19,481 nucleotides of DNA from an uncultured Methanomassiliicoccales archaeon (GTDB taxonomy: Archaea > Thermoplasmatota > Thermoplasmata > Methanomassiliicoccales > Methanomethylophilaceae). Below, piece after piece: positions 2,186 through 18,463 of the stretch. The stretch spans positions 8,568 through 28,048 of the forward strand of contig CAZDCU010000010.1 in NCBI GenBank assembly GCA_964504055.1, written 5' to 3'. Position 1 is the first letter of the stretch. Each line of letters opens with the position of its first letter. The position numbers and the translations under genes are program-made. The notes under the pieces were generated by a model that ran no database searches, was not told where the DNA came from, and was given only the letters and a program-made list of their open reading frames with translations.

Positions 2186-2207
2186 AACGATATTATAGAG
2201 AGAAATC

Positions 2208-3470: not shown

Positions 3471-3478
3471 ATCTTTTT

Positions 3479-3501: not shown

Positions 3502-3527
3502 GGATTCGTATTTTCAAAACGTTTTAG

Positions 3528-4061: not shown

Positions 4062-4155
4062 TCGGGATGCTCCTTTGCCTGTATTCGGGAAATGTATCGG
4101 CAATATACAATCTTCTGTCAATCGTAATTCCGTACAGGTGCCGATACAGAATTAT

Positions 4156-4182
4156 TCCGGCTGAAACATCATCCGGCTGAAA
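4156..4182 (+). repeat. Perfect 11-nt direct repeat TCCGGCTGAAA x2 (period 16 nt) immediately upstream of the candidate TATA box of the hyf-like operon
   Basis: TCCGGCTGAAA occurs at 4156-4166 and again at 4172-4182. The second copy runs into the purine-rich stretch AAGAAAGG before the TATA element. This could be a regulator binding site. Confidence 0.6.
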
Positions 4183-4188
4183 GAAAGG

Positions 4189-4198
4189 TTTATAAATA
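4189..4198 (+). promoter_or_regulatory. Candidate BRE/TATA promoter of the hyf-like operon
   Basis: TTTATAAATA is preceded by purine-rich AAGAAAGG and centred about 33 nt upstream of the ATG at 4227. This predicts a very short leader. Confidence 0.4.
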
Positions 4199-4226
4199 TT
4201 ATAACATAAGCAGTCGCTCCGTTACA

Positions 4227-6203
4227 ATGGATTCCCTGTCTGTAATATGCAATGACAATCCGACACTGGCAGCGGTATCGGTGTTTCTGATGCTGATACT
4301 GCCGTTTGCCGGTATGTTACCGGGATTGACAAAGACAAAGGAATCTGTGTGTAAACTGCAGATGATTCTGTGCGGAATTTCATGCTGTATCGGGATAATG
4401 ACGTTCCCGATACACTGCATCTGTTCCGATATTTCGGTAATGATTCCTCTGAAATCGGCAATAGGTCCGTACGGAATACTCATAGACGGCATATCGGCGC
4501 TGATGATGTCTGTATCGTCCGCTGTGTTCCTTCTTGTGATACTGCATATGGCAGGTTCTTCGCATGTTATGAACGGCAGATATCTTGCATCTATGAATGC
4601 TCTGTACATCGCGTGTATGCTCTGTATGTGTGCGGACACCGTTGCCGTTCTTCTGATCGGTTGGGAATGCGTTTCGCTGCTTACGTTCCTGATGAACGAT
4701 AAACCCGGGGAAGAAGAGCACAGATGGATGTTCTTCGTCATAACGCACATCGGCGGTCTGATGCTTATCGGAACCTATGCATACATGGCATCCGTTACCG
4801 GAACATTCGTACTTTCGGAATGGGCAGGTATATCTTCACTGGTCGGAACGACACTGTCTTCGATTCTTATCCTGCTGTTATTCCTGGGATTCGGTTCGAA
4901 ACTGGGAATCGTTCCGTTCCACGCATGGATGCCCGAAATGTACAGAACGACACCGACCCACACAGTTATTCTGTTATCCACTGTGTGTTCCAATGTTGCG
5001 ATTCTGATTCTTTTCAAGAGTATTTTCGGATACATCGGAATTTCCGATGACATGAACGGAATCGCATTGGTGCTGATGCTTCTGTCTTCCGTATCGGCGC
5101 TGTGGGGTTCGATGGAATCCATGATTCAGAACAAACCGAAGAGGATTCTTGCCTATTCAAGTATGGAGAATATGGCATTGGTCTGTCTGTGTATGTCGGT
5201 CGCAATAGCGTTCGCGCCCGTATCAAAATCCGCAATGCAGCTGATTCTCATTGCGGGACTGTTACACACAGTCAACCACTCGCTGTTCAAATCTCTGATG
5301 CTGATGACTGTCCACACAGTCGAAGACTGTACGGGTGAGACCGACATCAATAATTTCGGAGGATTGGGGAGAACGTTGCCTGTTCTCTCTTTCGCAGCGG
5401 TTATCGGTACCGCATCTCTCGCAGCCGTACCTCCGATGAACGGATTCACAAGTGAACTGTTAATGCTGCAGTCTATGATTTCCGGTGAAACATCGGAATC
5501 GATGCTGATGCTTGTTATGCCTTTGGCAGTCGCAGTATTGGGTGTCTGCGGTATGATGGGTGCAACATCGTACGTGAGACTGTACGGATTCACCTATCTC
5601 GGACGCCCGAGATCGAAAGGTGCGGAATCTCCGAAATCTGTCGGCAGACTTCCGATGTTTTCTATGTGGGTTCTTGCAGTATCATGTATCGTTACGGGAT
5701 TGTTCGCATTGAACATTGCAGATGTTCTCAACACAGGCATGAATTCATTCCTGGGAACATCTGCGGAATACAGAGATGCGATGTCCGGTAACTTCGAACC
5801 TCTGATTCTCGGAATAATGATTCTCGGAGCCATTGCGATACTTGTATTCCTTATGCGTTCGAGAAAAGAAGACGGCATTGAGGCCAACACATGGGCCTGC
5901 GGAGGTACATTGGACGAAGATATGCAGTACTCTTCGGCGGGATTCTCACAGCCGTTGGTGCGTGTGTTCCACCCAATTTACGGCGACACCGTTTCCATGA
6001 CCGATGATGACGGGCACAAAAAAGTGTTCTATCATGTCAGATTCGTGGAGCCGTTCAAGAAATACATTTACACACCGGTCGCGAAAGGTGTAATATTCAT
6101 TTCAAAACAGGTCGAAAGGATACAGACAGGTAACATTCAGTCGTATCTGACATACATGCTGATTGTTATCGTTCTTGCTTTACTGGCGGTGAGGCTCATA
6201 TGA
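4227..6203 (+). CDS. HyfB/HycC-like (NuoL/Mrp-antiporter-type) membrane subunit of a group-4-hydrogenase-related complex
   Basis: 658 aa and polytopic. It has the antiporter-subunit signature GFGSKLGIVPFHAWMPEMYRTTPTHTVILLS and a C-terminal TWACGG motif typical of HycC/HyfB. Its stop overlaps the start of the next gene (ATGA at 6200-6203). Confidence 0.9.
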   Translation: MDSLSVICNDNPTLAAVSVFLMLILPFAGMLPGLTKTKESVCKLQMILCGISCCIGIMTFPIHCICSDISVMIPLKSAIGPYGILIDGISALMMSVSSAVFLLVILHMAGSSHVMNGRYLASMNALYIACMLCMCADTVAVLLIGWECVSLLTFLMNDKPGEEEHRWMFFVITHIGGLMLIGTYAYMASVTGTFVLSEWAGISSLVGTTLSSILILLLFLGFGSKLGIVPFHAWMPEMYRTTPTHTVILLSTVCSNVAILILFKSIFGYIGISDDMNGIALVLMLLSSVSALWGSMESMIQNKPKRILAYSSMENMALVCLCMSVAIAFAPVSKSAMQLILIAGLLHTVNHSLFKSLMLMTVHTVEDCTGETDINNFGGLGRTLPVLSFAAVIGTASLAAVPPMNGFTSELLMLQSMISGETSESMLMLVMPLAVAVLGVCGMMGATSYVRLYGFTYLGRPRSKGAESPKSVGRLPMFSMWVLAVSCIVTGLFALNIADVLNTGMNSFLGTSAEYRDAMSGNFEPLILGIMILGAIAILVFLMRSRKEDGIEANTWACGGTLDEDMQYSSAGFSQPLVRVFHPIYGDTVSMTDDDGHKKVFYHVRFVEPFKKYIYTPVAKGVIFISKQVERIQTGNIQSYLTYMLIVIVLALLAVRLI

Positions 6204-7138
6204 TCGGGCACATCGTTATGATTCTTCAGGCAGTCGTTCTGATTGCGGTTTCTCCGTTGATGACGGGAATCATCCGTAAAGTCAAGGCAGCTTATCAGGG
6301 AAAAGTAGGGCCGGGTATTTTCCAGCCTTATCATGATTTGGCCAAACTGTTCAGGAAAGGAAGACTGACGGGAAAGGATCACACCTGGTTATTCAAAGCT
6401 ATCCCGTATATGTGTCTCGCATCGATGGTTATCCTTTCGCTGATGGTTCCGTTCGTGTATACAGGCATTCTTTCTCCCTTCGGAGATTTAATCACATTGG
6501 TGTACCTCTTTACTTTATTCAGATTCGCCATGGTTTTGGGCGGATTGGAAGGAGGTTCCGTATTCGGAGGAATGGGAAGCAGCAGGGAAATGATGATGTC
6601 CGTATTGATTGAACCCGCACTGCTGCTTTCGATCATGGCTTTATCCGTTTTAACAGGCGGAAGCACCAATATGTCGGATATTTCGCTGAATATTGCCGAA
6701 ATGGGTTTCGATGCGTTGGGTCCCACGCTGATACTTGCGGTTACGTCGTTTATGATGACATTATTGGCTGAGAATGCGAGAGTGCCTTTCGACAATCCCG
6801 CTACTCATCTGGAACTGACAATGGTCCACGAGGCAATGATTCTCGAATATTCGGGAAAGAAACTGGGAATGATGGAACTTTCATCGGAAATAAGACTTAC
6901 GCTTTTCATGGCGATGATTTCGTCTATGTTCCTTCCGTGGGGAATCGCCACGGAAATCACGCCTTCCGCAATTCTGATTGCGACAGCTGTTGCGATTGTG
7001 AAGATGTTAATCATCGCGGTCGTGATTGCAACGGTTGAAAGTGTAACTGCGAAATACAGACTGTTCAAGACACCGAATCTTCTGACAATCTCATTTATTC
7101 TGTCGTTACTTGCGATGGTTTCGGTGTATATTCTCTGA
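6200..7138 (+). CDS. HycD/HyfC-like (NuoH-type) membrane subunit
   Basis: 312 aa. The N-terminus SPLMTGIIRKVKAAYQGKVGPGIFQPYHDLAKLFRKG is characteristic of HycD/HyfC. The PFDNPATHLEL / EYSG motifs are NuoH-like. GGTGAGG lies upstream of the ATG. Confidence 0.9.
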   Translation: MIGHIVMILQAVVLIAVSPLMTGIIRKVKAAYQGKVGPGIFQPYHDLAKLFRKGRLTGKDHTWLFKAIPYMCLASMVILSLMVPFVYTGILSPFGDLITLVYLFTLFRFAMVLGGLEGGSVFGGMGSSREMMMSVLIEPALLLSIMALSVLTGGSTNMSDISLNIAEMGFDALGPTLILAVTSFMMTLLAENARVPFDNPATHLELTMVHEAMILEYSGKKLGMMELSSEIRLTLFMAMISSMFLPWGIATEITPSAILIATAVAIVKMLIIAVVIATVESVTAKYRLFKTPNLLTISFILSLLAMVSVYIL

Positions 7139-7148
7139 GGTGAAAGAT

Positions 7149-7808
7149 ATGGATGTAACTGTTGCAATGAATCTCATAAACATCTGCGCCTCATCGATGC
7201 TTCTGTGTTCCATACTGTCTATGGCAATGCTACGCATGCCGCCGATGGTGAAATTATTCTCACTGCAGTCACTGTTCTTAGGTGCGATGGCTGCCGTTGT
7301 CGCTTATTATTACGATGAACCGCACATCTACATCATGTGCGCACTGACGGTAATCATCAAAGGATTGGTGATACCGAAGGTACTTGACAGTGTTTTGCTG
7401 AAAGTGGAAACCGTCAAAGAAGCCAAACTGAAAATCGGTATCGCAGGTTCGTTATTGGTGTGTGCTGCGTTGATTTTCATATCGTATTACGTCACGGAAC
7501 CGTTCATAATGAAATTCGACACAATGGAGAACAGCTGTTTGGCATTATCGATGTCTATCGTATTGATCGGACTGCTGATGATGGCTTCCAGGCGTAAGGC
7601 GGTAACGGAAGTTATCGGACTGCTGATGATGGAGAACGGTCTGTTCCTCGGTGCACTGTCCATTTCCCACGGAATGCCGCTGATCGTTGAGATTGCGGCG
7701 TTCTTCGATGTTTTGGTTGCATTGGTAATCATCGGCGTATTCATTCTGAGAATCAACAGATCGTTCCATTCCACCGATGTAGCAGATCTCAGGAGGCTGA
7801 AGGAATGA
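7149..7808 (+). CDS. HyfE-like (NuoK-related) membrane subunit
   Basis: About 219 aa from the ATG at 7149, which is preceded by GAGGTGA. The C-terminal half, GLLMMENGLFLGALSISHGMPLIVEIAAFFDVLVALVIIGVFILRI, parallels E. coli HyfE. The ORF-track start at 7110 overlaps the upstream gene and is probably an over-extension. Confidence 0.75.
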   Translation: MDVTVAMNLINICASSMLLCSILSMAMLRMPPMVKLFSLQSLFLGAMAAVVAYYYDEPHIYIMCALTVIIKGLVIPKVLDSVLLKVETVKEAKLKIGIAGSLLVCAALIFISYYVTEPFIMKFDTMENSCLALSMSIVLIGLLMMASRRKAVTEVIGLLMMENGLFLGALSISHGMPLIVEIAAFFDVLVALVIIGVFILRINRSFHSTDVADLRRLKE

Positions 7809-9274
7809 TACAGGAATCTCTGACGGTGATATTTTCAGTATACATTCTGTTGCTGATTTCATGCGTATTCGTAAAGAAAATGAGAGTTCTTTCATATCTT
7901 TCCGTTACCGCATCGGCTGTCTCCGTTGTCTGTGCGGTATTGACCGCCGTCGGTATGTATGACTGTAATTTCATATTCGAAAACGGACCGCTGTATATGG
8001 ACAGAATATCGCTGATATTCCTCTGTCTTGTTTCATTCGTTTCGTTAATGACGATGCTCTATTCCGACGGATACATCTTCTACGAGAAAGAAGAAGGAAT
8101 CGTTTCCGACAGAGATCTGAGACAGTACTACATTACACTCAATCTGTTTGTCGCCGTGATGTATGTCACATTCATTGTGAATTCATTGGCACTTATTTGG
8201 CTGTGTGTCGGTGCAACCACATTGGTTTCCACTTTCCTTGTGGGATTTTACAAGAACGGAAACTCCACGGAAGCCGCATGGAAGTACATGACACTCTGTT
8301 CAGTGGGAATTACCGTGGCATTGCTCGGTATCACATTGCTGTATGCTTCGACACTCAACGTAATAACGGATCTCGATTCCGCTTTGGATTGGACTGTTCT
8401 CATGAAGAATGCCGGGATGTTGGACAGCGATCTGATGAGAATATCGATTGTTCTGATAATCATCGGATACGGTACGAAAGTCGGATTTGCACCGATGCAC
8501 ACATGGCTTCCCGATGCACACAGTCAGGCACCTACGCCCGTGAGCGGTATGCTGTCGGCGGTACTGCTTAACTGTGCGCTGTACGCAGTACTGAGATGTG
8601 TTATGATTTCCGAGATAACAATACCGGATTTTGCGGACACAATACTGCTGATATTCGGATTGTTCTCGTTATTCATTGCGGCGATGTTCATCATAGGTTC
8701 CAAGGATCTGAAGAGAATGCTCGCATACTCGAGTATCGAGAATATGGGATTGATCGCAATAGGATTCGGTATCGGTACCGAACTGAGCATATTCGGTGCG
8801 CTGATTCAGCTGATTGCACACTCCGTAACAAAACCGCTGTTATTCTTTGCCGCGGGAAACATCATTCAGAAGTATGAAACAAGGGATATGAATCTCATCA
8901 GGGGTGTGAGGGAGAAGATGCCTTTCACGGCATTTATGATGGCTGCAGGTTCTCTGATTATTGTGGGTGTTCCTCCGTTTTCGGTATTTGTTGGAGAATT
9001 CTGCATCGTATACGGCGCGGTTTCATCAAATGCCGTGTGGGTTGCGGTTCTCACTCTGTTTTTACTCGTGTTTGTGTTTGCGGGATTTACAAAACACATT
9101 TTCGAAATGCTTTCGGGTCACACCGAACAGGATATCGGAGAGCATAAAGGAATTTTAAGAAAGATTCCGTTCGTTGTGATGTTTGCCGTGACGCTGATTA
9201 TCGGATTGTTTATGCCTGAGTCCTTCTCTGAATTTTTACACGGTGCGGCTTCGGCTGTAGGGGGACTGATTTGA
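7805..9274 (+). CDS. HyfF/HyfD-like (NuoM/NuoN antiporter-type) membrane subunit
   Basis: 489 aa and polytopic. It has the signature GYGTKVGFAPMHTWLPDAHSQAPTPVSGMLSAVLL. The start overlaps the upstream stop (ATGA) and AGGAGG lies upstream. Confidence 0.9.
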   Translation: MIQESLTVIFSVYILLLISCVFVKKMRVLSYLSVTASAVSVVCAVLTAVGMYDCNFIFENGPLYMDRISLIFLCLVSFVSLMTMLYSDGYIFYEKEEGIVSDRDLRQYYITLNLFVAVMYVTFIVNSLALIWLCVGATTLVSTFLVGFYKNGNSTEAAWKYMTLCSVGITVALLGITLLYASTLNVITDLDSALDWTVLMKNAGMLDSDLMRISIVLIIIGYGTKVGFAPMHTWLPDAHSQAPTPVSGMLSAVLLNCALYAVLRCVMISEITIPDFADTILLIFGLFSLFIAAMFIIGSKDLKRMLAYSSIENMGLIAIGFGIGTELSIFGALIQLIAHSVTKPLLFFAAGNIIQKYETRDMNLIRGVREKMPFTAFMMAAGSLIIVGVPPFSVFVGEFCIVYGAVSSNAVWVAVLTLFLLVFVFAGFTKHIFEMLSGHTEQDIGEHKGILRKIPFVVMFAVTLIIGLFMPESFSEFLHGAASAVGGLI

Positions 9275-10716
9275 CGGATATCCGCAGTGATGATTACAGA
9301 AAAACAGTCGCAGAATACATCGGAGAAGGTTACGGCATAATCGACATGTTCGCATCCGAAAGACATCCTGCGGAAAATGAACACGTCAACGTCATTCTGA
9401 GAAAAGACAATGAAATTGTCAGAGTAATCTGCGATGTGAAAGACGGCAGATATGATTCTCTTTCGGAAAACATACCGTCTGCGGAAATCTACGAACGTCT
9501 GATCAGAGAATACAGCGGATTCGATGCCGTAGGTCTCGGAAACGAATGTCCCGTCACATACTGGAGAACCGGCAATCCGCCTCTGAAGAAGGAACGTTCC
9601 GATATCGGAGAAACAAGAATTTCCGTTCCGCACAACAACATCCGCGGTGACGGAATCTTCGAGATACCTGTCGGACCCGTACATGCGGGAGTAATCGAGC
9701 CGGGTCATTTCAGATTCAGTGTTGCCGGAGAATCGGTAATCAAACTGAATGTACACCTCGGTTATACACACAGGGGAATCGAGAAGATGATGGAAGGTCC
9801 TGTTTCCAGAAACAGAATCCATCTTATCGAACGTACATCGGGAGATACCACCGTTGCAAATTCATTGGCATACTGTCATATCATGGAAAACAACGAAAAA
9901 GTTCCGGAACGTGCGCAGTTTATACGTGTGATTGCTTCGGAACTTGAGAGATTGGCTTCGCATGTGTCAGCCATAGGGGGAGTATGTACCGATACGGCGT
10001 TTTCCGTCCCTGCGGCATTGGGTTCACGTCTTCATGAAGACGTGCTTCGTATCAATCTCAGAGTTTTCAAAGACAGATTCATGCGTAACGTCATCGTTCC
10101 GGGTGGAGTAAGGAAGGATATCGATAAAGAAAACCGCAGGTTCCTGACCGAGTCTCTGCTGAAACTGAAATTGGATATTATGGAATTGTCCGATATGATG
10201 ATGAATTCCTCTACACTCCTCGACCGTCTCGAGACTACAGGTGTACTCAAAAAAGAAGTGGCGGAAATCCACAGGGCGGTAGGTCCGATTGCAAGAGCAA
10301 GCGGAGTGACATCCGATGTAAGGAAAGAATGTCCTTACGATGCATATGATAAGCTGGGATTCACGATTCATACGGAAACTTCCGGAGATGTACTTGCAAG
10401 AACCGAAGTGAGAATAAGAGAAGCGTATGAATCGATCGATCTCATAATGCAGTCTCTCGCTCTCATCGAAGACGGTCCGCTGAGGATAGATGTGAAACCG
10501 AACGACGGATTTGCGGTATCTGTTGTAGAATCGGCGAGAGGAGAACTTGTACACTCTGCGGAGATACGTGACGGTGAAATCTGGAGATACAGCATACGTG
10601 ATCCGTCTCTCGTGGATTGGCCGATGATGTCCTATGCAGTACCGGGAAACGTCGTTCCCGATTTCCCGTTGATCAACAAGAGTTTCAGTCTTTCGTACAG
10701 CGGAAACGATCTGTGA
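9271..10716 (+). CDS. HycE/HyfG-like fused NuoC-NuoD-type 'large subunit' homolog lacking all four NiFe-ligand cysteines
   Basis: 481 aa with a TTG start overlapping the upstream stop. The N-terminal part has a NuoC-like motif (IPSAEIYERLIREYSGFDAVG). The remainder is HycE-like (GPVHAGVIEPGHFRFSV, GYTHRGIEK). At the expected N-terminal RxCGxCxxxH position it reads ERTSGDTTVANS. At the expected C-terminal DPCxxCxxR position it reads SFSLSYSGNDL, and the protein ends there. Confidence 0.9.
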   Translation: MTDIRSDDYRKTVAEYIGEGYGIIDMFASERHPAENEHVNVILRKDNEIVRVICDVKDGRYDSLSENIPSAEIYERLIREYSGFDAVGLGNECPVTYWRTGNPPLKKERSDIGETRISVPHNNIRGDGIFEIPVGPVHAGVIEPGHFRFSVAGESVIKLNVHLGYTHRGIEKMMEGPVSRNRIHLIERTSGDTTVANSLAYCHIMENNEKVPERAQFIRVIASELERLASHVSAIGGVCTDTAFSVPAALGSRLHEDVLRINLRVFKDRFMRNVIVPGGVRKDIDKENRRFLTESLLKLKLDIMELSDMMMNSSTLLDRLETTGVLKKEVAEIHRAVGPIARASGVTSDVRKECPYDAYDKLGFTIHTETSGDVLARTEVRIREAYESIDLIMQSLALIEDGPLRIDVKPNDGFAVSVVESARGELVHSAEIRDGEIWRYSIRDPSLVDWPMMSYAVPGNVVPDFPLINKSFSLSYSGNDL

Positions 10717-10725
10717 GGTGTATGT

Positions 10726-11472
10726 ATGCTGAGTTTCAATCTTAAAAATGCATTTTCCAAGAAGGTTGCGGAATCGATTCCCGTTCTGAACGAAAATTCT
10801 CTGATGATGCCTTTTCCCGACGGATGTACTCACTGCGGTGCCTGTATTGACAACTGTCCGTCGAAAGCTATCGATATCGTCAACAATAAATGGACAATAG
10901 ACCTCGGAAGATGCGTATTCTGTCTGGAATGTACCGAAATCTGTCCCGAACACGCTCTTACGAAGATTCCCGCACCCGATTATACACTTTCACGTGAAGA
11001 AATGATTTATTCGGAATCGAAACAACCCGATTATCATTATGAAAAATTGCCGGAAGAGTTCGTAAAATCATTCGGAAAATCAATTTCGATAAGAGAAATC
11101 GATGCAGGTTCCTGTAATGCATGTGAAACCGAGATCAACTGCTGTTCCAACCCGTATTACGATATGGGACGTTTCGGACTGAAGATTGTGGCATCGCCGA
11201 GACACGCGGATGTTTTCATCGTAACAGGCCCTATGACCGAGAATATGGCTGAGGCCGCAAAACGTACCTACGATGCGGCACCGTTTCCGAAGATGGTGAT
11301 TGCAACAGGTACATGTGCAATATCCAACGGAATCTTCGCAGACGGTGACGTAAGAGAAGGCGGTACCGAGAGTGTTCTTCATCCCGATATGTACATAATC
11401 GGATGTCCTCCGTCACCGAACAGGATTATACGTTCGATTCTGAAGGCATTCGGATTTATTGAACAACAATGA
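10726..11472 (+). CDS. Fusion of a HycF/NuoI-like 2x[4Fe-4S] ferredoxin domain and a HycG/NuoB-like small subunit
   Basis: 248 aa. The N-terminal part has CTHCGACIDNCP and CVFCLECTEICP, two CxxCxxCxxxCP motifs. The C-terminal part has DAGSCNACETEI, ATGTCA and IIGCPPSP, the NuoB/HycG-type cluster ligands. GAGGTG lies upstream of the ATG. Confidence 0.88.
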   Translation: MLSFNLKNAFSKKVAESIPVLNENSLMMPFPDGCTHCGACIDNCPSKAIDIVNNKWTIDLGRCVFCLECTEICPEHALTKIPAPDYTLSREEMIYSESKQPDYHYEKLPEEFVKSFGKSISIREIDAGSCNACETEINCCSNPYYDMGRFGLKIVASPRHADVFIVTGPMTENMAEAAKRTYDAAPFPKMVIATGTCAISNGIFADGDVREGGTESVLHPDMYIIGCPPSPNRIIRSILKAFGFIEQQ

Positions 11473-11839
11473 CGATACACTGTGCGTTGCTTACAACGTA
11501 GTTGGAAACGCTTCCGAGAACCACTCTGTCAAGGCCTGTCTTATTGGCAGCTCTTCCCACGATGATTGCACTGCAGTTAAGTCTCTGCGCACATTCCAAA
11601 AGCACTGTCGAAGGATGACCGGATTCCACCTGTGTTACAACATCTACACCCTGTTCGGATGCTGTTTTCTTAATCTGTGCAAACTTTTCTTCAATAGCAT
11701 CCATTTCCGAAAGATGTTCTTTGGACGGGAACACGGAGACAATATGAAGGCGTTCGTTGAACGATTTCGCATATTTCAGAGCATAATCCAACGCTTTCTG
11801 AGTGTGCTCTCTGCCGTCATATGCCATCAGTACAGTCAT
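11456..11839 (-). CDS. Universal stress protein (UspA family)
   Basis: MTVLMAYDG...IVGRAANKTGLDRVVLGSVSNYVVSNAQCIVIVV shows a typical USP fold with a G-x-G...GS ATP-binding-type motif. I prefer the ATG at 11839 (or 11851) because a TATA-like element sits about 27 nt upstream. The ORF-track start at 11926 adds an atypical N-terminal extension. The 3-prime end overlaps the convergent hyf-like gene by 17 nt. Confidence 0.85.
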   Translation of the reverse strand: MTVLMAYDGREHTQKALDYALKYAKSFNERLHIVSVFPSKEHLSEMDAIEEKFAQIKKTASEQGVDVVTQVESGHPSTVLLECAQRLNCSAIIVGRAANKTGLDRVVLGSVSNYVVSNAQCIVIVVQ

Positions 11840-11861
11840 TGTTCCGCCCATGTCGGTTGTA

Positions 11862-11873
11862 CTATAAAAATAA
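11862..11873. promoter_or_regulatory. TATA-like element in the divergent USP / RyR-gene control region
   Basis: The element reads TTATTTTTATAG on the minus strand and CTATAAAAATAA on the plus strand. It is centred about 27 nt upstream of the USP ATG at 11839, consistent with a leaderless transcript. Because it is quasi-symmetric, it could also serve the plus-strand gene. A second TATA-like ATATATAG lies at 11929-11936 on the plus strand. Confidence 0.35.
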
Positions 11874-11910
11874 GGGTAACTCTTCAGAGCATCTTCGATT
11901 TGCGGCGGAT

Positions 11911-12519
11911 GTGCAGGGTTACACACTCATATATAGTCAGGATTTCATTCTCTTCCCGATACGGGCGGTTGATTCGCAGAATTCCGAATGTCTGTATCGG
12001 ACTGTCGGTGATACGTTGGTTTGTGAATATGTGTCTGATAATTTTTCCGAATATCCGAAAGAAGAGGATATCGAAAAGACAGCACAGGTTATTCACAGTT
12101 ATTACAACAGAAACCGTCTGACTGAGTTTCCGGACAAACCTCTTGAATATCCGACCTGGGAGGATTTACCCCAGGATCTGAAACATTCCAACATAATGCA
12201 GGCGAAAGACATTCCCAGGAAACTTACTCTGATCGACTGTCATATCGAAAAAGACGACGGTTCCGGACTGAAATCGTTCACTTCCGAAGAAGAGATACTT
12301 TTAGGAAAGATTGAGCATGAAAGATGGGTCGGAGAGAGAATTTCGGAAGGTTGGAAATACGGTTCCGAAAAAAATGTTGAGAAACGTATTTCTCCGTACA
12401 TCGCCGAATGGGATAAAATTCCCGAATCGATCAGGCTGTACGATATCGAAGCAGTCAGAAACATAATTCCGCTTCTGAAATTATCGGGTTTGATGGTGGT
12501 GCGCAATGACAGGAAATAA
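11911..12519 (+). CDS. Protein with two tandem RyR (ryanodine-receptor-type) domain repeats
   Basis: The C-terminal repeat EHERWVGERISEGWKYGSEKNVEKRISPYIAEWDKIPESIRLYDIEAVRNIIPLLKLSGLMVV fits the prokaryotic RyR-domain pattern (HERW..GW.YG...P....W..IPE....D...VR.IP.LL...G). The preceding segment AQVIHSYYN...YPTWEDLPQDLKHSNIMQAKDIPRKLTLIDCHI is a more divergent copy. The stop at 12519 is firm, but the start is uncertain. ATG 11821 would overlap the divergent USP 5-prime end. Alternatives are GTG 11911, TTG 12016 (GGTGA 4 nt upstream) and GTG 12031. Confidence 0.7.
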   Translation: MQGYTLIYSQDFILFPIRAVDSQNSECLYRTVGDTLVCEYVSDNFSEYPKEEDIEKTAQVIHSYYNRNRLTEFPDKPLEYPTWEDLPQDLKHSNIMQAKDIPRKLTLIDCHIEKDDGSGLKSFTSEEEILLGKIEHERWVGERISEGWKYGSEKNVEKRISPYIAEWDKIPESIRLYDIEAVRNIIPLLKLSGLMVVRNDRK

Positions 12520-14461
12520 AACAGACAGTTCGTTGGATGCACCGTTATTTATCTCGGTGACAGGACACGCAGACATACCTTCAAAGGATTTTCAGTTCAT
12601 CGAATCGGAATTGGATAAACTTTTTACGATGTTACGGACGAAATATCCCGACACCAGACTCGTATTGATTTCAGGAATGTGTCAGGGTGCGGATATCATC
12701 GTTTCCGAGTTTGCTCTGAAGAAAGGACTGCATGTTGCGCCTGTTCTTCCCATGTCTTTGGAGAAATACAGGAAAACATTCTCATCGGAAGATTATCTTC
12801 ACAGAATGGAAGTTATCCTTGAAAATGAGAACACATACAGTCCGTTTGTCATAGAAACCGATTCCGATGACGAAAGAGACAGTTACACAAATCTTTCTGC
12901 ATTCTTAATTTTCAATTCAAGTGTTATGATTTCCCTTTGGGACGGAAGGAGTTACGAACGTAACGGCGGTACTTTCGATACAATGAGGATGGCTTACGAG
13001 GGCGTTGACACATCTGTCATGCAGAATTATTCGAGAACCGTTTCCGGTACCGCATCGGACATACCGTTCCGCCTGAAATATCTTGATTCTGCGGAAGACT
13101 GTCTGATTTACAGAATTCCCGTATCCCGTGAATCTTCCGATGAAGAATTGATCGGAAAAGGATGTAAAAATCCCAATGAAATCAAACAGGGCTGCGGTTT
13201 CATTGTCCCCATAGTGGTTCAGTCCGACGGTGCGGAACCCGATATCATGTCTCCGAAAGTTATTCCTTCGGATACAATTCCCCCGATCTATGATTCCGCA
13301 TTCGCAAGGATGGATGAATTCAACAGAGATGTAAAGAATCATCTCAACAGTCATTCCGGCGTTTCCTGTATCGATGCGGATTCAGATTCGGATTACGAAT
13401 GTGATTCCTGTTTCTATCTTCTTTCCGCAAAAAGCGACAGTGTTAAGAAAACAATAGAAAAAGTCAAAAAATCACCGACGATGAATCTTACGGCCGAACG
13501 TTATCACATAGCGGATGTTTTGGCACTGAGAGATCAGTCTTCTACTTTCAGAATGATCCGTGCGATTATTCTCGTAACTGCACTTTCCGGATTCTTCTTC
13601 AGTCTGTTCATACTGATGAACGGTTCCGTTCTGATCAACGTAATATACACAGTACTGATGATAGGCGGTACCGCTCTGATATATCTGCATAACAGAAAGG
13701 GAGATTATCTCAGATTCATCGAATACAGAGCGTTGGCGGAATCCATGAGAGTAGAATACTACCGTACGCTGATGGGCGTCCGCCGTCTGATTCCGAATTC
13801 ATGTTACGGATACATGAAAAACGAACTGCTTTGGACGAATACCGTTCTCAAATCATGGAACACACCGTTCATGAACGATTACGGTTCGCTTCCCGTACTG
13901 AGTGATGATGAAATCATTTCATTGGTAAACGAATGCTGGGTCGACGACCAGATGAATTACCATGAAAAAACCAAAAACAGGAACCGTGCCAAACTGACAA
14001 AGAACAAAAACGAGGCAAAAATTCTGTCTGTTACAACTACAGTAATTTCGGGATTATTGGCCGCATCGACAATGTTCTTCGAAGAATTCATGGACGGTTC
14101 GGTTGCTTCCGTCGGAGGATTGGTACTTTTCGGAGTACGTATGGTGCCCGTTCTGAATGTGGATATCACATTCATAGTCAGGGCTCTGCTTGTGGTACTT
14201 GTTGCGTTATCCACGTATGTTATGACTTCCGCCATTCTTATCCACGGAGGAACTCCCGAACAGATCGAATCGAAAAGACAGATGTTTGTTATTGCAAAAC
14301 TCCGTATGATGAAATCCGATTCAAAGATTCAGAGAGAAATTCTGCTTGAATTGGGCGATCAGTGCATAGCGGAGATGAACGATTGGGTTTACGAACACAG
14401 AATGAAGGATTACAAATCGGGCGTAGCCAAAACGAGTCTTATGGATGTGGATTCGAAATAA
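12506..14461 (+). CDS. SLOG-like (SMF/DprA-LOG superfamily) N-terminal domain fused to two 2TM (SLATT-like) membrane modules; predicted ligand-gated membrane effector
   Basis: 651 aa. The N-terminal roughly 165-210 aa show a Rossmannoid strand/Gly-loop pattern like LOG/YpsA/ThsA-SLOG: LFISVTGHADIP, RLVLISGMCQGADIIVSEFA, VMISLWDGRSYERNGGTFDT. The C-terminal half has two similar modules. Each is a polar helix starting xYH (ERYHIADVLALRDQ..., MNYHEKTKNRNRAKL...) followed by a pair of TM helices (aa about 350-395 and about 505-579). The ATG lies inside the end of the RyR gene, a 14-nt overlap. Confidence 0.72.
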   Translation: MTGNKTDSSLDAPLFISVTGHADIPSKDFQFIESELDKLFTMLRTKYPDTRLVLISGMCQGADIIVSEFALKKGLHVAPVLPMSLEKYRKTFSSEDYLHRMEVILENENTYSPFVIETDSDDERDSYTNLSAFLIFNSSVMISLWDGRSYERNGGTFDTMRMAYEGVDTSVMQNYSRTVSGTASDIPFRLKYLDSAEDCLIYRIPVSRESSDEELIGKGCKNPNEIKQGCGFIVPIVVQSDGAEPDIMSPKVIPSDTIPPIYDSAFARMDEFNRDVKNHLNSHSGVSCIDADSDSDYECDSCFYLLSAKSDSVKKTIEKVKKSPTMNLTAERYHIADVLALRDQSSTFRMIRAIILVTALSGFFFSLFILMNGSVLINVIYTVLMIGGTALIYLHNRKGDYLRFIEYRALAESMRVEYYRTLMGVRRLIPNSCYGYMKNELLWTNTVLKSWNTPFMNDYGSLPVLSDDEIISLVNECWVDDQMNYHEKTKNRNRAKLTKNKNEAKILSVTTTVISGLLAASTMFFEEFMDGSVASVGGLVLFGVRMVPVLNVDITFIVRALLVVLVALSTYVMTSAILIHGGTPEQIESKRQMFVIAKLRMMKSDSKIQREILLELGDQCIAEMNDWVYEHRMKDYKSGVAKTSLMDVDSK

Positions 14462-14479
14462 CCGGAGTGTGTGGGAAAT

Positions 14480-15199
14480 ATGATGATTGTCGGAGAAGAA
14501 GACGCTGCAAAGAGGCATCAGACCCGTATAAAGAAGATAAAGGCGCATATCAGACTGAATGCTACGCCGAATAACGTTATGAGTATCTGCAGCAAAGCCG
14601 GTCTTCCGTTCCCCAAAGGTGTTTCCTTTGAAAAATTCCCCGAATGGCTCGATGAAAATCTCAGAGATCTTCCGGATTCTTCTTTGGTACAGATTATGAG
14701 AAAATTGGGTCTGACTGTCGTTTCCGACCCTGCGGATTTCAACGGAGTTTTCATCATTCACTGCAGTGCGGATAAAAAACTTGCAGATGCGGTGACAAAA
14801 TCACTCAATGAGATAGGAATAGACGATTCTATGATTTACTATTCATCCGGAGAAGAGACGGGAACGAGACTCGGAACATCATTTGTGGATATCATATTCA
14901 AATGCATCAGAGATGCAAAACTGATTTTATGCATACTCAGTAACAATTCGATCAACAGTCAGTACTGTATGCAGGAAGCAGGCGCTTCCATGATTCTGAA
15001 CAAACCGATAATTCCGATTTTATCAGGGATTGAACCGACAGAGATGCCCGGTTTCATGGATAATACACGTTACATCGCAGCGGACATGTCAACAGCTGAG
15101 AATGCGAAAGCATTTCTCAAGGAAGTCTGCCGTATTATGGAAATAGATGCATCTTCGGCATCCGTTTCGTTGGGTGTTCAGAAAGTTCTCAGCAGGTGA
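14480..15199 (+). CDS. TIR-domain protein with an uncharacterised N-terminal region of about 90 aa
   Basis: The C-terminal part fits a bacterial-type TIR (TIR_2-like) pattern: GVFIIHCSADKKLADAVTKSLNEIGI..., GTSFVDIIFKCIRDAKLILCILSNNSINSQYCMQEAGASMILNKPIIPIL. This includes the xCxxE glutamate position (E at 14975-14977). The start is either ATG 14480 or the upstream in-frame GTG 14471, 9-18 nt after the stop of the previous gene. Confidence 0.82.
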   Translation: MMIVGEEDAAKRHQTRIKKIKAHIRLNATPNNVMSICSKAGLPFPKGVSFEKFPEWLDENLRDLPDSSLVQIMRKLGLTVVSDPADFNGVFIIHCSADKKLADAVTKSLNEIGIDDSMIYYSSGEETGTRLGTSFVDIIFKCIRDAKLILCILSNNSINSQYCMQEAGASMILNKPIIPILSGIEPTEMPGFMDNTRYIAADMSTAENAKAFLKEVCRIMEIDASSASVSLGVQKVLSR

Positions 15200-15203
15200 A
15201 AAC

Positions 15204-16169
15204 ATGGGTCAGAATGTCGATAAGCTGGTTGAAGAGATTAAGAATTCACAGGTCCGCGGAGCTACAACCATCGCCATCCGTGTGACGGAGGCACTGGTTT
15301 CCGATGCAGAAGCCTACATGAATTCCGATGATAGAGATGACGACCTGAAATATCATACTCAGGAATGGGGTTTCCAGCTGATTGAGTCCCGTCCGTCACA
15401 GATTACTTTGAGAAATTCCGTCAAAAGCATTCTCAGAGGTATTGAGAAGATCGATGACGATAACGATGAGAAAACATTCGAGGTTCTGAAGAGCAATGCC
15501 GATGCATTCGTTAAAGTTGCAGAGAAAGCTTCTGAAAAAATCGCATTCCTCGGAGCGAATATCATCTGCGACGGAGACACGGTTCTGACAAACAGCCACA
15601 GTGCGTTGGTTGTGGGGATTCTCAATGAAGCAGTCAACAAAATGGGAAAGGATGTACGTGTTATAGTCACCGAAACACGTCCGAAATACCAGGGAATCAA
15701 AATGGTGAACGAACTCGTAAATCTCGGAATAAAGACCACACTGATTGTAGACGGGGCCGTAAACCATGTGATGCCCGAAGTGGATTTGGTCATTGTCGGT
15801 GCGGATACAGTAAGCTCCGACGGTTCCGTTATTTCGAAAATCGGTGTTTCTCAGATTGCTCTTTCCGCTCATGAATGGAAAGTTCCGTTTTATGTTGCGG
15901 CACCTACCTTCAAATTTTCCGAAGAGACGCTTTCAGGCGTTATGATCGCTCTCGAAGAGGGAAAAGCCGAGGATGTCGTCAAAAGAAGCACAGTCGGAGA
16001 TTACGGTCTTCTGGAGAATCATTCGGATGACGGACTGTTCGAGATAAGAAATCCCTCATTCGATGCGACAAGGGCGGAATTCGTACGCGGCGTGATCACC
16101 GAACTGTACATTATGTCTCCGTATTCGATCGGAGAATTTCTCGCACGCCGTTCCGGATTCATTGACTGA
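15204..16169 (+). CDS. eIF-2B alpha/beta/delta family protein (aIF-2BII / ribose-1,5-bisphosphate isomerase-like)
   Basis: MGQNVDKLVEEIKNSQVRGATTIA..., VRVIVTETRPKYQGIKM..., VIVGADTVSSDGSVISKIGVSQIALSAHEWKVPFYVAAPTFKFS are family hallmarks. The ATG at 15204 is preceded by AGGTGA and lies 4 nt after the TIR gene stop. The ORF-track start at 15147 lies inside the TIR gene and is probably an over-extension. Confidence 0.88.
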   Translation: MGQNVDKLVEEIKNSQVRGATTIAIRVTEALVSDAEAYMNSDDRDDDLKYHTQEWGFQLIESRPSQITLRNSVKSILRGIEKIDDDNDEKTFEVLKSNADAFVKVAEKASEKIAFLGANIICDGDTVLTNSHSALVVGILNEAVNKMGKDVRVIVTETRPKYQGIKMVNELVNLGIKTTLIVDGAVNHVMPEVDLVIVGADTVSSDGSVISKIGVSQIALSAHEWKVPFYVAAPTFKFSEETLSGVMIALEEGKAEDVVKRSTVGDYGLLENHSDDGLFEIRNPSFDATRAEFVRGVITELYIMSPYSIGEFLARRSGFID

Positions 16170-16818
16170 GTTCGGAATCGATAATCGGTATGAGATCGGC
16201 AAGATTATTCAGAATCCATGTGCCGTTCTGTTTCATCATACTGTCTGCAGGCGTAAGGTCGGGTACGACGGCCACTCTGCACCCCGCTGCGTGAGCCGAT
16301 AGCACTCCGTTGGGGGAATCTTCGACTGCGATGCAGTCGCAGGGAGCTTCGCCGATTTTATCGGATGCGTAGAGATACACATCCGGCGCAGGCTTACCGT
16401 TTTCAACCATATGCGCTGAAATCAACGAATTCAGTTTTGTATCGAGGCCGATTATTCTCATGTAATTCATCGCACGGTCGTACTGTGTCGATGTTACCAC
16501 AGCGATTTTTATTCCCTTATCTGTGAGATAATCAATCAGTTCGTACGCACCGGTTTTGACGGGCATTCCGTTTTCTTCTACGTAGTTGCGCATCATTTCT
16601 CTGCGGCGGTCGCGTATTTTGAAGAAATCGAAGGATTCTCCGTACTTACTGCGGTAAACTCTGCTGCATGTTTCGGGATCGTTGCTTCTGAGCGAAAGAA
16701 TGTCTGCAGGATCCACTTCGAAACCGAATTCCCTGCATGTTTCAATCATAAAATCGAGGTTGAGTCTCTCTGAATCTATCAGTGTCCCGTCCATGTCGAA
16801 GAGAACCGCTTTAATCAT
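16159..16818 (-). CDS. HAD-superfamily hydrolase, subfamily IA (beta-phosphoglucomutase/phosphatase-like), paralog 1
   Basis: 219 aa with the HAD motif I LFDMDGTLIDSE, then VVTS, GKPAPDVY and VEDSPNGV. The start overlaps the upstream kinase stop (ATGA at 16815-16818). The 3-prime end overlaps the convergent eIF-2B-family gene by 11 nt. Confidence 0.9.
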   Translation of the reverse strand: MIKAVLFDMDGTLIDSERLNLDFMIETCREFGFEVDPADILSLRSNDPETCSRVYRSKYGESFDFFKIRDRRREMMRNYVEENGMPVKTGAYELIDYLTDKGIKIAVVTSTQYDRAMNYMRIIGLDTKLNSLISAHMVENGKPAPDVYLYASDKIGEAPCDCIAVEDSPNGVLSAHAAGCRVAVVPDLTPADSMMKQNGTWILNNLADLIPIIDSELSQ

Positions 16819-17411
16819 GAGTCCGACCCCTCAAGAAGGATGTTGATGTCCGTAAAAAGTTTTGTGTAGTCGATCGATTCAAGATCGGTCGTATCGAGTG
16901 TTATGCTTCTGCCGATACAGAACGAACCCATTCCGCGTTCTTCATAGCCTTTAAACGATTCTCTTGTGGCAACAGCCGTTTTTTCTTTTACATCGCCTTC
17001 CGGATACCTTGTGCTTACGGCATGTCCGCGGTGTCTTTCCGATGACTGATTGCGCCGGTTGAATCTTTCGATGAATGTGTCCGTATCTCCTTTCAACATT
17101 ACCGTGACAGCAGAATAACCGTATTTTTCAAGAAGATCTTCGATTTCCCTGCCGGTATTTTTCTCGAAATTATTGTCGAGGATGAACGGTACCTTGTTTG
17201 ACATAAGCATCTCGGCGATGTAGTACATCGTATACGTACCCGCTCTGTCGAGTTTTCTTTTGGATTCGTAGCAATCAAAGCCGATATTATCGAAAAGAAT
17301 CTCTTTGAGACGGTCTTTGGAGAGAATCGGGAATCCGAACATCTCAGACAGATGTTTTGCAACGGTGGATTTACCGGATGCCGGCAGTCCCGATAACAGA
17401 ATACATTTCAT
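16815..17411 (-). CDS. P-loop kinase / NTPase (AAA_33-like, small-molecule kinase family)
   Basis: 198 aa with Walker A LLSGLPASGKST at the N-terminus. Size and layout resemble small nucleotide/metabolite kinases. It appears translationally coupled to the downstream HAD gene. Confidence 0.75.
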   Translation of the reverse strand: MKCILLSGLPASGKSTVAKHLSEMFGFPILSKDRLKEILFDNIGFDCYESKRKLDRAGTYTMYYIAEMLMSNKVPFILDNNFEKNTGREIEDLLEKYGYSAVTVMLKGDTDTFIERFNRRNQSSERHRGHAVSTRYPEGDVKEKTAVATRESFKGYEERGMGSFCIGRSITLDTTDLESIDYTKLFTDINILLEGSDS

Positions 17412-17803
17412 CTCAGATTCCTCGGTTACGGTGTCTGGGTTGCTCAGACGGATGGTGGATACGTCTCGGCTCTGATAATAATATCGCCGTAAACAATATA
17501 TTCGGAAGATTACTTTTAGGAATAACTAAATTTATCGTATCGGAAACACATCCGCAGAAACGGAAGTTTGCCGAATGATAAAAAATCGAGAAAGAATCAT
17601 TTTCTGAATATCGTTACAGATTTCGACAGAAACAATACATACATCTAAAGCGAAGGCATAAACAATGATTTCGGAGTGTATGACGGCCCCGATGAATTAC
17701 TGAAAGAACATCATCAGAATATGTCTTCCCCGAAGGCATTTGTTTACCGCAACATCGGAAGACATCTTATGAACAGGAATGTGAAGAAAATCAGAAACAG
17801 AAA

Positions 17804-18463
17804 TCACTGATTTATTTCCGATTCGATTATCGGTATGAGTTCGGAAAGATCGTTCAGAATCCATTTTCCGTTCTTTTTCATCATTTCATCTGCAGGTGTG
17901 AGATCGGGAACAACGGCTACGTTGCACCCTGCGGAATATGCGGACTGCACTCCGTTCGGTGAGTCTTCTACGGCGATACAGTTGACAGGAATTTCACCGA
18001 CTTTTTCAGAAGCGTAAAGATACACATCCGGCGCAGGCTTACCGTTTTTCACCATTGCTGCGGAAATAACATAATCGAATCTTCCGTCGAGACCGATTAT
18101 TTTCATATAATCCACGGCACGCTCGTACCGATTGGATGTGACAACGGCAGTCTTGATATCGGTATCTTCAAGAAAATCCATCAGTTCGTACACTCCGGGT
18201 TTTGCCTGCAGCCCTTCGGTTTCGACATAATTCCGCATTTTCTCTCTGCGGCTGTCGCGTATTCTGAAAAAATCGAAGTCTTCGCCGTACTTACTGCGGT
18301 AGAATTTACTGCAGCCTTCGGGAGATACGCTTCTCATTGAAAGAACATCCTCACGGTCGACATCGAAACCGAATTCTCTGCATGTTTCGATTGTAAAATC
18401 AAGATTCGGTCTTTCGGAATCGACGAGTGTTCCGTCCATGTCGAAGAGGATTGCTCTGATCAT
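17804..18463 (-). CDS. HAD-superfamily hydrolase, subfamily IA, paralog 2
   Basis: 219 aa, collinear with paralog 1 with no gaps and roughly two-thirds identical by eye (LFDMDGTLVDSE, GKPAPDVYLYAS, AVEDSPNGV, VAVVPDLTPAD). Confidence 0.9.
   Translation of the reverse strand: MIRAILFDMDGTLVDSERPNLDFTIETCREFGFDVDREDVLSMRSVSPEGCSKFYRSKYGEDFDFFRIRDSRREKMRNYVETEGLQAKPGVYELMDFLEDTDIKTAVVTSNRYERAVDYMKIIGLDGRFDYVISAAMVKNGKPAPDVYLYASEKVGEIPVNCIAVEDSPNGVQSAYSAGCNVAVVPDLTPADEMMKKNGKWILNDLSELIPIIESEINQ

Follow-up and report, generated by a model that had tools for sequence, protein, structure and literature searches.

The DNA analyzed here, referred to below as the window, is a stretch of 19,481 nucleotides (nt) from an uncultured Methanomassiliicoccales archaeon of the family Methanomethylophilaceae (assembly GCA_964504055.1, contig CAZDCU010000010.1, positions 8,568 to 28,048 of the forward strand). 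It holds a cluster of co-directional genes for a RyR-domain protein, a membrane protein with an N-terminal SLOG-like domain and four transmembrane (TM) helices, designated SLOG-4TM, and a TIR-domain protein, which are followed by a gene for an IF-2B-like protein. An earlier note on this DNA had taken the first three genes for a candidate Thoeris-like signaling and abortive-infection (Abi) system, and the cluster was analyzed with that proposal in mind. Its features are given below in window positions, with lengths and residues in amino acids (aa).

12016..12519, plus strand: RyR-domain gene (Pfam RyR), 167 aa from TTG 12016, with an alternative start at GTG 12031
12064..12243, plus strand: RyR repeat 1, degenerate, without the GWxYG loop and carrying 'IHSYY … PLEYPTWEDLP … KHSN' (hhalign of the two halves)
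12283..12510, plus strand: RyR repeat 2, canonical PF02026
12316–12318, 12325–12327, 12391–12393 and 12442–12444, plus strand: checked codons of the repeat 2 residues H96, W99, S121 and D138, respectively
12506..14461, plus strand: SLOG-4TM gene, 651 aa, with an N-terminal SLOG domain, a helical linker and four TM helices in this order
12539..13210, plus strand: SLOG domain (~aa 12–235), assigned by its invariant motifs, a YAcAr match (2.5e-5) and Foldseek
13550..13687, plus strand: predicted TM helices 1–2 (aa 349–394), within the DUF4231 match and followed by an invariant 'EYRALAE..RVE.YR' motif
14021..14248, plus strand: predicted TM helices 3–4, with TM3 at aa 506–524, a β-hairpin insert at aa ~532–553 and TM4 at aa ~554–581
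14471..15199, plus strand: TIR gene, encoding 242 aa (start at GTG 14471) or 239 aa (start at ATG 14480)
15204..16169, plus strand: IF-2B-like gene (ribose-1,5-bisphosphate isomerase / MtnA family), 321 aa (Pfam IF-2B, TIGR00524)
11456..11851, minus strand: universal stress protein (USP) gene, probable start M26 at nt 11851 (Pfam Usp 2.6e-23)

The operon packing of the first three genes, as described in the earlier note, is evident from the coordinates of the open reading frames (ORFs). The RyR ORF ends at 12519 and overlaps the SLOG-4TM gene, with its ATG at 12506, by 14 nt; the SLOG-4TM stop codon ends at 14461, which leaves a gap to the TIR gene of 9 nt (GTG 14471) or 18 nt (ATG 14480). The IF-2B-like gene is the fourth co-directional gene, located 4 nt past the TIR stop, and the last of the cluster. 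The upstream boundary is formed by the divergent USP gene, with ~165 nt of intergenic DNA up to the RyR start, and the downstream boundary by a convergent HAD hydrolase gene. The RyR gene had previously been placed from 11821 on, where the longest ORF (11821–12519) begins. However, the first 65 codons of that ORF overlap the opposite-strand USP gene, and the orthologue in the nearest related locus, L007 (loci are numbered L001 and onward), encodes a 167-aa protein whose start corresponds to TTG 12016. For these two reasons the protein is considered to have ~162–167 aa, and the start is most likely TTG 12016 (or else GTG 12031), not 11821.

Domain composition of the encoded proteins

The RyR protein matched the Pfam RyR family with an E-value of 2.5e-10. 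A profile of its 22-member family, compared with the PDB sequences, matched the R12/R34 repeats of RyR2 (1e-56) and the Bacteroides single-repeat protein 3NRT (6e-27). When the two halves of the window protein were compared with hhalign, the N-terminal one proved to be a degenerate copy of the repeat (probability 87%, E = 4e-6), so that the protein consists solely of two RyR-type repeats, as had been noticed before. With residues counted from GTG 12031, repeat 2 retains H96, W99, G107/W108/G111 and D138, and H96 and W99 are invariant across all 22 aligned members of the family. The spacing of +3/+25/+42 from the first His, formed in the window by H96/W99/S121/D138, is the same as in two phage proteins, RyDEP (H75/W78/H100/D117) and RyR Tad (H129/W132/H154/D171); the window residues were mapped by spacing and by Pfam-family alignment to RyR2, not by direct alignment of RyDEP. 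The identity of the window RyR protein to phage RyR proteins is 24–35%, and RyDEP (DyoEdafos gp78) was not among the matches when phage proteins were searched with it.

In addition, the window RyR protein aligned to the C-terminal 158 aa of a 559-aa HD–RyR protein of locus L001 with 56% identity. Judging from this alignment, it is a reduced, RyR-only form of an HD-phosphohydrolase–RyR partner that measures ~560–700 aa in relatives. The stand-alone RyR gene of the earlier note thus represents the reduced form of a larger protein. In the long partners, the N-terminal ~400 aa contain the invariant HD-phosphohydrolase motifs RDHxxH, HD(-IGYP), DH, LHN and CDELQxW (alignment of L001:4329–5540 with 14 other loci). 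The HD assignment is based on these motifs together with weak Pfam HD matches, and a profile of this domain had no match among the PDB sequences; it appears to be an uncharacterized HD family joined to RyR.

The SLOG-4TM protein matched Pfam DUF4231, a SLATT-like family, at aa 340–424 with 28.3 bits (cut-off 24.7), whereas its match to SLATT_3 was weak (0.021 with the Pfam profile; 1.7e-4 with the NCBIfam profile, below the cut-off). Its AlphaFold (AF2) model (pLDDT 80.8, pTM 0.81) contains an N-terminal α/β domain, for which Foldseek returned DprA, ShosA and LOG-type proteins at probabilities of 0.98–1.0. The corresponding E-values were weak (~8e-3 and worse) because the whole chain served as the query. 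When molybdenum cofactor (MoCo) carrier proteins are included, the DprA/ShosA/LOG/MoCo-carrier matches, all of them SLOG-superfamily folds, span probabilities of 0.69–1.0. Fifteen homologues share the invariant residues G20, S56/G61/D63 ('S..A.G.D'), W145-D-G147 and G154-G155-T156, and D158 is nearly invariant among them; these invariant residues form what are predicted to be nucleotide-loop motifs. Thus, the N-terminal domain has the Rossmannoid fold, the Gly-rich loop after β1 and the GGxGT-like motif by which the SLOG superfamily is recognized.

The hydrophobic stretches at aa 349–394, 506–524 and 546–581 correspond to four TM helices in the AF2 model. The first TM pair shows the mark of the SLATT superfamily, a SLATT-clan profile over a two-helix hairpin, through DUF4231, while no SLATT profile matched the second pair. 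An internal duplication of the 2×SLATT kind was considered and rejected, since hhalign showed no similarity between TM pairs 1 and 2. A SLOG-like N-terminal domain and TM helices, as called in the earlier note, were recovered. The predicted role of SLOG-4TM is that of a signal-gated membrane effector.

The TIR protein matched Pfam TIR_2 (E = 3.2e-12) and consists of an N-terminal four-helix region (aa ~9–75) and the TIR domain (aa ~88–215). Foldseek comparison of its structural model returned the TIR domains of SPARTA, RPS4, SpbK, AbTir and SARM1, all at a probability of 1.0. The glutamate at the catalytic position, E169 (codon 14975–14977), lies in the sequence 'YCMQE' and is invariant in TIR orthologues, in agreement with the xCxxE glutamate read from the sequence before. 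Among the PADLOC models, the TIR protein matched spbK (1.7e-14) and, weakly, ThsB (2e-7). The IF-2B-like protein was assigned by Pfam IF-2B (1.7e-67) and by NCBIfam TIGR00524 (187.8 bits, above the cut-off).

Partners of SLOG-4TM in bacteria and archaea

When 1.84 billion representative proteins were searched with a profile, relatives of SLOG-4TM appeared in 8,686 representative clusters at E ≤ 1e-3 and in 1,445 at E ≤ 1e-30. Gene neighborhoods were compared in a sample of 62 non-redundant SLOG-4TM loci, which were mostly bacterial. A TIR-domain gene was present near SLOG-4TM in 33 of these loci (32 found by iterative search, and L008 by tblastn) and a RyR-domain gene in 27, including loci of Clostridia, Chloroflexi and Deltaproteobacteria; both were found together in 17–18 of the 62. 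As a control, 140 other neighbors of the bacterial genes were examined, and no Pfam family was common to more than 4 of them; the recurrence of TIR and RyR exceeds what chance would give. A minority of the 140 neighbors matched defense families, namely mad2/3/8, a CBASS phospholipase effector, PD-T4-6, PDC-S03/S68, Cas6 and WYL. That TIR was not a partner of the family had at first been suggested by phmmer and tblastn searches of 68 loci with the window TIR protein, which gave archaeal matches only. This view was overturned, and TIR was restored as a family partner, because Pfam annotation of the neighbors and iterative searches uncovered divergent TIR genes in the 33 loci. Word-indexed homologue searches had returned three close TIR relatives and two close RyR relatives.

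The TIR genes at SLOG-4TM loci are mostly adjoining and co-directional, and often occur as 2–4 paralogues (Clostridia, Proteobacteria and others). According to Pfam, some of the partners are fusions of TIR_2 with LRR (L056), TPR (L024) or WD40 (L018), and a DUF4062–NACHT–TPR protein is encoded near SLOG-4TM in L014. Partner architectures with LRR, TPR, WD40 and NACHT are those of pattern-recognition receptors. The bacterial RyR partners include HD–RyR proteins of 570–720 aa as well as stand-alone proteins of 103–143 aa (L070, L072–L074). Moreover, RyR and SLOG-4TM are fused in six representative proteins (P0038, P0041, P0042, P0044, P0045 and P0057) and in an ORF of L079. The conserved unit is thus SLOG-4TM with TIR and/or RyR, and the link between RyR and the effector is backed by gene fusion.

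The gene orders in the archaeal loci are listed below.

Window, L007 and L075: RyR – SLOG-4TM – TIR – IF-2B
L079: HD–RyR – RyR–SLOG-4TM fusion – TIR – IF-2B
L008: HD–RyR – SLOG-4TM – transglutaminase-like – Sel1 – 132-aa ORF (minus strand) – TIR – IF-2B
L001: the order of L008, with an additional TIR–methyltransferase gene (opposite strand) and an inositol phosphatase gene
L081 (extended L003): HD–RyR – SLOG-4TM – transglutaminase-like – Sel1 – 656-aa unknown protein – ParA-like – 860-aa TIR_2 protein – CxxCxxCC protein

The overlapping pair of RyR and SLOG-4TM genes is kept in all Methanomethylophilaceae loci, and wherever an archaeal SLOG-4TM locus is of sufficient length for a judgment, its cluster includes one or more TIR genes. 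TIR directly adjoins SLOG-4TM in the window, L007, L075 and L079. The transglutaminase-like (~420–455 aa) and Sel1-repeat (~340–435 aa) genes that follow SLOG-4TM in L001 (7974–10503), L003 (7973–10572) and L008 (11934–14314) are absent from the window. The 656-aa protein of L003 was considered as a second copy of SLOG-4TM and rejected, with 16% identity and no Pfam match. It belongs to a recurring four-gene module (L081:14741–21076; L076:3–5477), in which the gene for this unknown protein is accompanied by genes for a P-loop protein of the ParA-like kind (~421 aa, 'KGGSGRT'), for a protein of 857–860 aa that carries TIR_2 at its C-terminus, and for a CxxCxxCC protein. The module looks like another candidate TIR-based system in Methanomethylophilaceae. 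A further TIR protein, of 456 aa with an N-terminal TIR_2 domain (1.3e-5) and a methyltransferase domain of the S-adenosylmethionine-dependent type, is encoded within the SLOG-4TM cluster of L001 (10512–11882, minus strand). In L080, the TIR–IF-2B pair is directly followed by a gene (1935–4238) for a membrane protein of 767 aa, which gives weak signals of TrkA_N and RyR and may be a channel-type RyR protein beside the same TIR family.

The nearest locus, L007, comes from a Candidatus Methanomethylophilaceae archaeon. The amino acid identity between the window and L007 is 92% for SLOG-4TM, 84% for RyR, 99.6% for TIR and 98% for IF-2B; the SLOG-4TM protein of L075 is 68% identical to that of the window. 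All ORFs of the cluster are intact, and the numbers of synonymous/non-synonymous codon differences from L007 are 132/57 for SLOG-4TM, 26/25 for RyR, 48/1 for TIR and 70/5 for IF-2B. These codon differences indicate that RyR and SLOG-4TM evolve fast, whereas TIR is constrained like a housekeeping gene. Fast evolution is frequent in immune genes. Nucleotide divergence is even along the block 11911–17598, in spite of the very uneven amino acid constraint. A recombination break between SLOG-4TM and TIR was accordingly rejected: the nucleotide identity is even at ~85–95%, and only the non-synonymous fraction differs. The cluster consists of intact genes under purifying selection.

In L007 the RyR and LOG genes are immediate neighbors, whereas in the window a six-gene Mbh/Ech-type hydrogenase cluster and the USP gene (4183–11910), both missing from this place in L007, lie between them. 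Synteny with L007 is broken exactly at the promoter region of the RyR gene. The other genes of the window encode TrkA, histidinol dehydrogenase, a LOG-family protein, the six-gene membrane-bound hydrogenase, HAD hydrolases and a kinase. The LOG-family gene (3528–4121, minus strand; Lysine_decarbox / SLOG cluster 4) codes for another SLOG-superfamily protein nearby and is probably a housekeeping gene. Two paralogous HAD-family hydrolase genes (16159–16818 and 17804–18463, minus strand), with ~74% nucleotide identity as judged by a cross-match through L007, lie on either side of a small AAA_33 kinase-like gene. The guanine plus cytosine (G+C) content is 0.42–0.44 across the cluster and 0.45–0.48 around it, a slight dip with no sharp break, and no integrases or transposases were found among the genes of the whole window. 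The earlier note, judging by eye, had likewise seen no integrase, transposase or compositional break at the flanks of the cluster.

Relation to Thoeris systems and alternative readings

We read the cluster, with moderate confidence, as a Thoeris-type, TIR-signaled Abi system with an effector of the "SLOG + 4TM" class and with RyR as a third component. As a prediction from sequence, its Thoeris-like character is well supported by comparative genomics. It has two of the general features of Thoeris, namely an operon-borne TIR with the catalytic Glu and an adjacent effector with a SLOG-fold, putative signal-binding domain. The logic put forward in the earlier note, with TIR as the generator, SLOG as the sensor and the TM helices as the executor, fits the comparative data, in which SLOG-4TM homologues lie directly beside TIR genes. 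The claim of an undescribed domain combination was not supported, or at least was overstated. TIR–SLOG–SLATT networks were predicted earlier by Burroughs 2015, according to the citation in PMC9503650, and for this reason the trio without RyR is not regarded as new. In addition, a predicted, unnumbered Thoeris effector class, "4TM SLOG" next to TIR, has already been listed in a preprint (bioRxiv 10.64898/2025.12.03.692087, Tables S1/S2). The likeness to this class lies in SLOG and four TM helices beside a TIR gene and was judged by architecture, not by effector sequence; the Streptomyces TIR of that class is 23% identical to the window TIR, which is only generic TIR similarity. The RyR component is not mentioned in that study.

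Among the numbered types, the SLOG domain of type I Thoeris senses TIR-made 3' cyclic ADP-ribose (3'cADPR), type III, as outlined for P. aeruginosa, has several TIRs and a SLOG effector, and type VII combines a TIR that makes canonical cADPR with the SLATT membrane effector ThsH (10.64898/2025.12.03.692087). A TIR generator and a SLOG receptor are common to types I and III and to the window cluster, and, so far as the outline of type III extends, its several TIRs are matched by the multiple TIR paralogues of the bacterial relatives. However, the output of the window system would be four TM helices instead of the SIR2 of the type I effector ThsA (SIR2–SLOG), and the window SLOG is nearest to the YAcAr/DprA type; no SIR2 or Macro domain and no PADLOC match to ThsA were found that would place the cluster in type I or II. 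The type III effector, ThsD, was compared with the window effector through a second-hand description of it. With type VII, the cluster shares a SLATT-type membrane output, since the first TM pair matches DUF4231 and, weakly, SLATT_3. Unlike ThsH, a SLATT-domain protein with ligand pockets between the SLATT protomers, the window protein has a separate SLOG domain and a RyR partner, and its second TM pair gives no SLATT signal.

The RyR component has its nearest described counterparts in phages, in proteins presented in two preprints of 2026; removal of the alarm molecule by this domain has so far been investigated in phages only. RyDEP is a glycosidase that cuts the ribose–ribose bond of 2'/3'cADPR by means of an H75/D117 catalytic dyad, with W78 stacking on the adenine and H100 contacting the phosphates, and several of its homologues are sponges in the nM range (PMC13232231). 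RyR Tad uses H129/W132, H154 and D171 to bind its ligands, which are 3'cADPR (43 nM) as well as 2'cADPR and cADPR (10.64898/2026.06.04.730250). The PF02026/R12 fold is common to these proteins and the window RyR, which keeps the His/Trp/Asp at +3/+42 spacing. The window protein differs from them in being encoded by the cell, beside its putative effector (to which relatives are fused), in having two repeats in one chain where the phage proteins are homodimers, and in having relatives joined to an HD phosphohydrolase. A phage-encoded anti-defense role does not apply to the window RyR, as the gene is chromosomal in the archaeon and in bacteria. Host-encoded RyR genes in Thoeris-like operons are not described in PMC13232231 or 10.64898/2026.06.04.730250, and a literature search found no paper combining "RyR domain" with SLOG or SLATT. 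The biochemistry of the phage RyR proteins, together with adjacency and fusion to SLOG-4TM, speaks for the earlier suggestion that RyR is a nucleotide-binding regulator or sponge.

Several observations weigh against the Thoeris-type reading. About half of the SLOG-4TM loci show neither partner, although many such contigs are short. The YAcAr SLOG match of Pfam (24.4 bits, 2.5e-5, aa 18–80) is under its cut-off of 28.2. The PADLOC models (PADLOC-DB v2.0.0) identified no named system and gave no match for RyR or SLOG-4TM; the TIR protein alone matched the spbK and ThsB models. The best named matches of the TIR protein are to SpbK, a self-contained TIR Abi protein, which is also its best PDB sequence match (9phb, 1.5e-9, residues 116–246). 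Where the phage RyR proteins have a phosphate-binding His, the window protein has Ser (S121). The context is one of housekeeping genes, with no mobile-element or defense genes within the window. Finally, two TIR + "4TM SLOG" examples, from Streptomyces sp. GKU 895 and Ca. Nitrospira nitrosa, gave no defense in E. coli (10.64898/2025.12.03.692087). The remaining observations of this kind concern the link between TIR and SLOG-4TM and are considered together with the alternative that they favor.

According to this alternative, which we regard as unlikely but as the strongest competitor, the cluster is made up of two separate units. RyR and SLOG-4TM would be self-contained, as a nucleotide-gated toxin with an antitoxin or buffer RyR and a signal made elsewhere, and the TIR would belong with the IF-2B-like protein, either as a stand-alone SpbK-like NADase Abi protein or in nucleotide/NAD salvage; their adjacency in the window would have arisen via deletions in a variable region. 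The TIR family is tied more closely to the IF-2B-like gene than to SLOG-4TM: it is located directly upstream of that gene in nine of nine loci with a gap of 0–10 nt (window 14471–16169; L001, L007, L008, L075, L076, L078:5124–6821, L079 and L080), and in L078 the two form one 565-aa ORF without a stop between them, an apparent fusion, and SLOG-4TM is missing from the 5 kb upstream of it. L001 and L008 have 2–4 other genes between SLOG-4TM and TIR. The divergence of the two proteins is not in step (window and L079 share 44% identity in TIR and 27% in SLOG-4TM), the constraint on TIR resembles that on the IF-2B-like gene rather than that on RyR and SLOG-4TM, and SpbK is the nearest relative of the TIR. 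SpbK of Bacillus subtilis matches over the TIR domain only (profile 150–275 of 308); its N-terminal region is unrelated to that of the window TIR, and it acts alone, without a separate effector.

The Thoeris-type reading is preferred to two units on three grounds: TIR genes are linked to the effector family throughout bacteria, the window cluster holds this single TIR, and the direct adjacency of TIR and SLOG-4TM recurs in four diverged lineages. The bacterial TIR genes to which the family is strongly and directly linked are unrelated to the archaeal one, which makes an archaeal TIR beside SLOG-4TM the expected partner. The sole TIR of the window cluster starts 9–18 nt past the SLOG-4TM stop, and the same adjacency is present in L007, L075 and the distant L079. 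Moreover, in the loci examined, IF-2B-like genes were not seen with SLOG-4TM outside the archaeal family, and their constant pairing with TIR may reflect functional coupling or simply the insertion site. The partnership of the window TIR with SLOG-4TM is therefore likely, although less firm than the earlier note had it; taken as a whole, that interpretation stood in its layout, its three domain calls and its Thoeris-like logic, and gave way on the novelty of the combination and on the firmness of this link.

Another possibility, which we consider improbable, is physiological signaling, in which an ADP-ribose or cADPR messenger made by TIR would gate SLOG-4TM as an ion conductor, with RyR as a buffer, for the control of ion flux or stress, in a prokaryotic analogue of the ADP-ribose-gated TRPM2 and of RyR channels. 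Vertical inheritance has kept the cluster at a single chromosomal position throughout the archaeal family, among housekeeping genes (USP, hydrogenase, LOG, IF-2B-like and HAD), its TIR is under strong purifying selection, and a scan of viral contigs with SLOG-4TM found no relatives (the RyR gene itself was not scanned there). Such a role would also agree with the TrkA_N/RyR-like membrane protein adjoining the TIR–IF-2B pair in L080 and with the presence of TRPM2 and TRPM8 in the Foldseek list of SLOG-4TM, at low probabilities of 0.05–0.23. TRPM2, with its SLOG-like MHR1/2 and channel, and the ryanodine receptors, with R12, carry the same two nucleotide-binding folds on a membrane protein; their membrane parts, however, have no detectable homology to SLOG-4TM, and the likeness is one of domain logic only. 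What argues for immunity instead is that the bacterial partner TIRs are fused to LRR, TPR, WD40 or NACHT repeats in multiple paralogues, a hallmark of immune receptors, that some SLOG-4TM loci lie among defense genes, that RyR and SLOG-4TM evolve fast relative to their neighbors, and that the characterized TIR + SLOG or SLATT systems are all antiviral.

It is very improbable that the cluster is a decaying remnant, left non-functional once the HD domain of the RyR partner, and the transglutaminase-like and Sel1 genes that L001, L003 and L008 have, had been lost: although the window RyR equals only the C-terminal 158 aa of a ~560-aa HD–RyR protein and its synonymous and non-synonymous differences are nearly equal, all ORFs are intact, the same reduced layout occurs in at least two further lineages (L007 and L075), SLOG-4TM is under purifying selection, all invariant SLOG and RyR residues are kept, and stand-alone RyR genes also occur beside bacterial SLOG-4TM.

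Proposed mechanism and significance

Within the Thoeris-type system proposed here, the TIR protein would, upon infection, turn NAD+ into an ADP-ribose-derived signal via E169, as suggested by what is known of its family. By analogy with the SLOG domain of ThsA, the signal would be bound by SLOG-4TM through its cytoplasmic SLOG domain, and the ligand would then drive the four-helix membrane part to breach or depolarize the membrane, halting both cell and virus. The R12-type RyR protein would bind the same signal and might also hydrolyze its ribose–ribose bond, a possibility raised by the retention of H96 and D138. In this way it could set the threshold for activation, as a buffer or off-switch, or else dock on the effector and serve as a co-sensor.

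The host-encoded RyR or HD–RyR component, which is supported by recurrent neighborhood and by fusion, appears to be new, as does the compact archaeal example. More tentatively, RyR may be an integral host part of a widespread TIR-signaled membrane effector that occurs in bacteria and archaea with RyR as a separate or a fused component, binding and perhaps hydrolyzing a cADPR-type signal. If so, it would be the first built-in threshold or off-switch known in Thoeris-like immunity and the cellular source of phage RyDEP and RyR Tad, and it would join the sensor folds of eukaryotic ADPR/cADPR-linked channels, RyR-R12 and the TRPM SLOG-like domain, on one prokaryotic effector.

Phages are known to counter Thoeris-type immunity with proteins, some of them RyR-domain proteins, that sequester or break down its cADPR-like alarm molecule. 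That the host itself encodes RyR, adjoining or fused to the TIR-associated SLOG-4TM, suggests that the signal is self-regulated through a buffer, off-switch or co-receptor, in analogy to the ring nucleases of type III CRISPR, and that phage RyR counter-defense has a cellular origin. The use of two-gene constructs, containing TIR and the effector, would be a possible reason for the failed tests of the "4TM SLOG" class, should the operons concerned include a RyR partner. The constant pairing of TIR with the IF-2B-like gene is a separate puzzle. To our knowledge, TIR signaling is essentially unstudied in archaeal gut methanogens, and the window provides a compact three-gene test case in such an organism.

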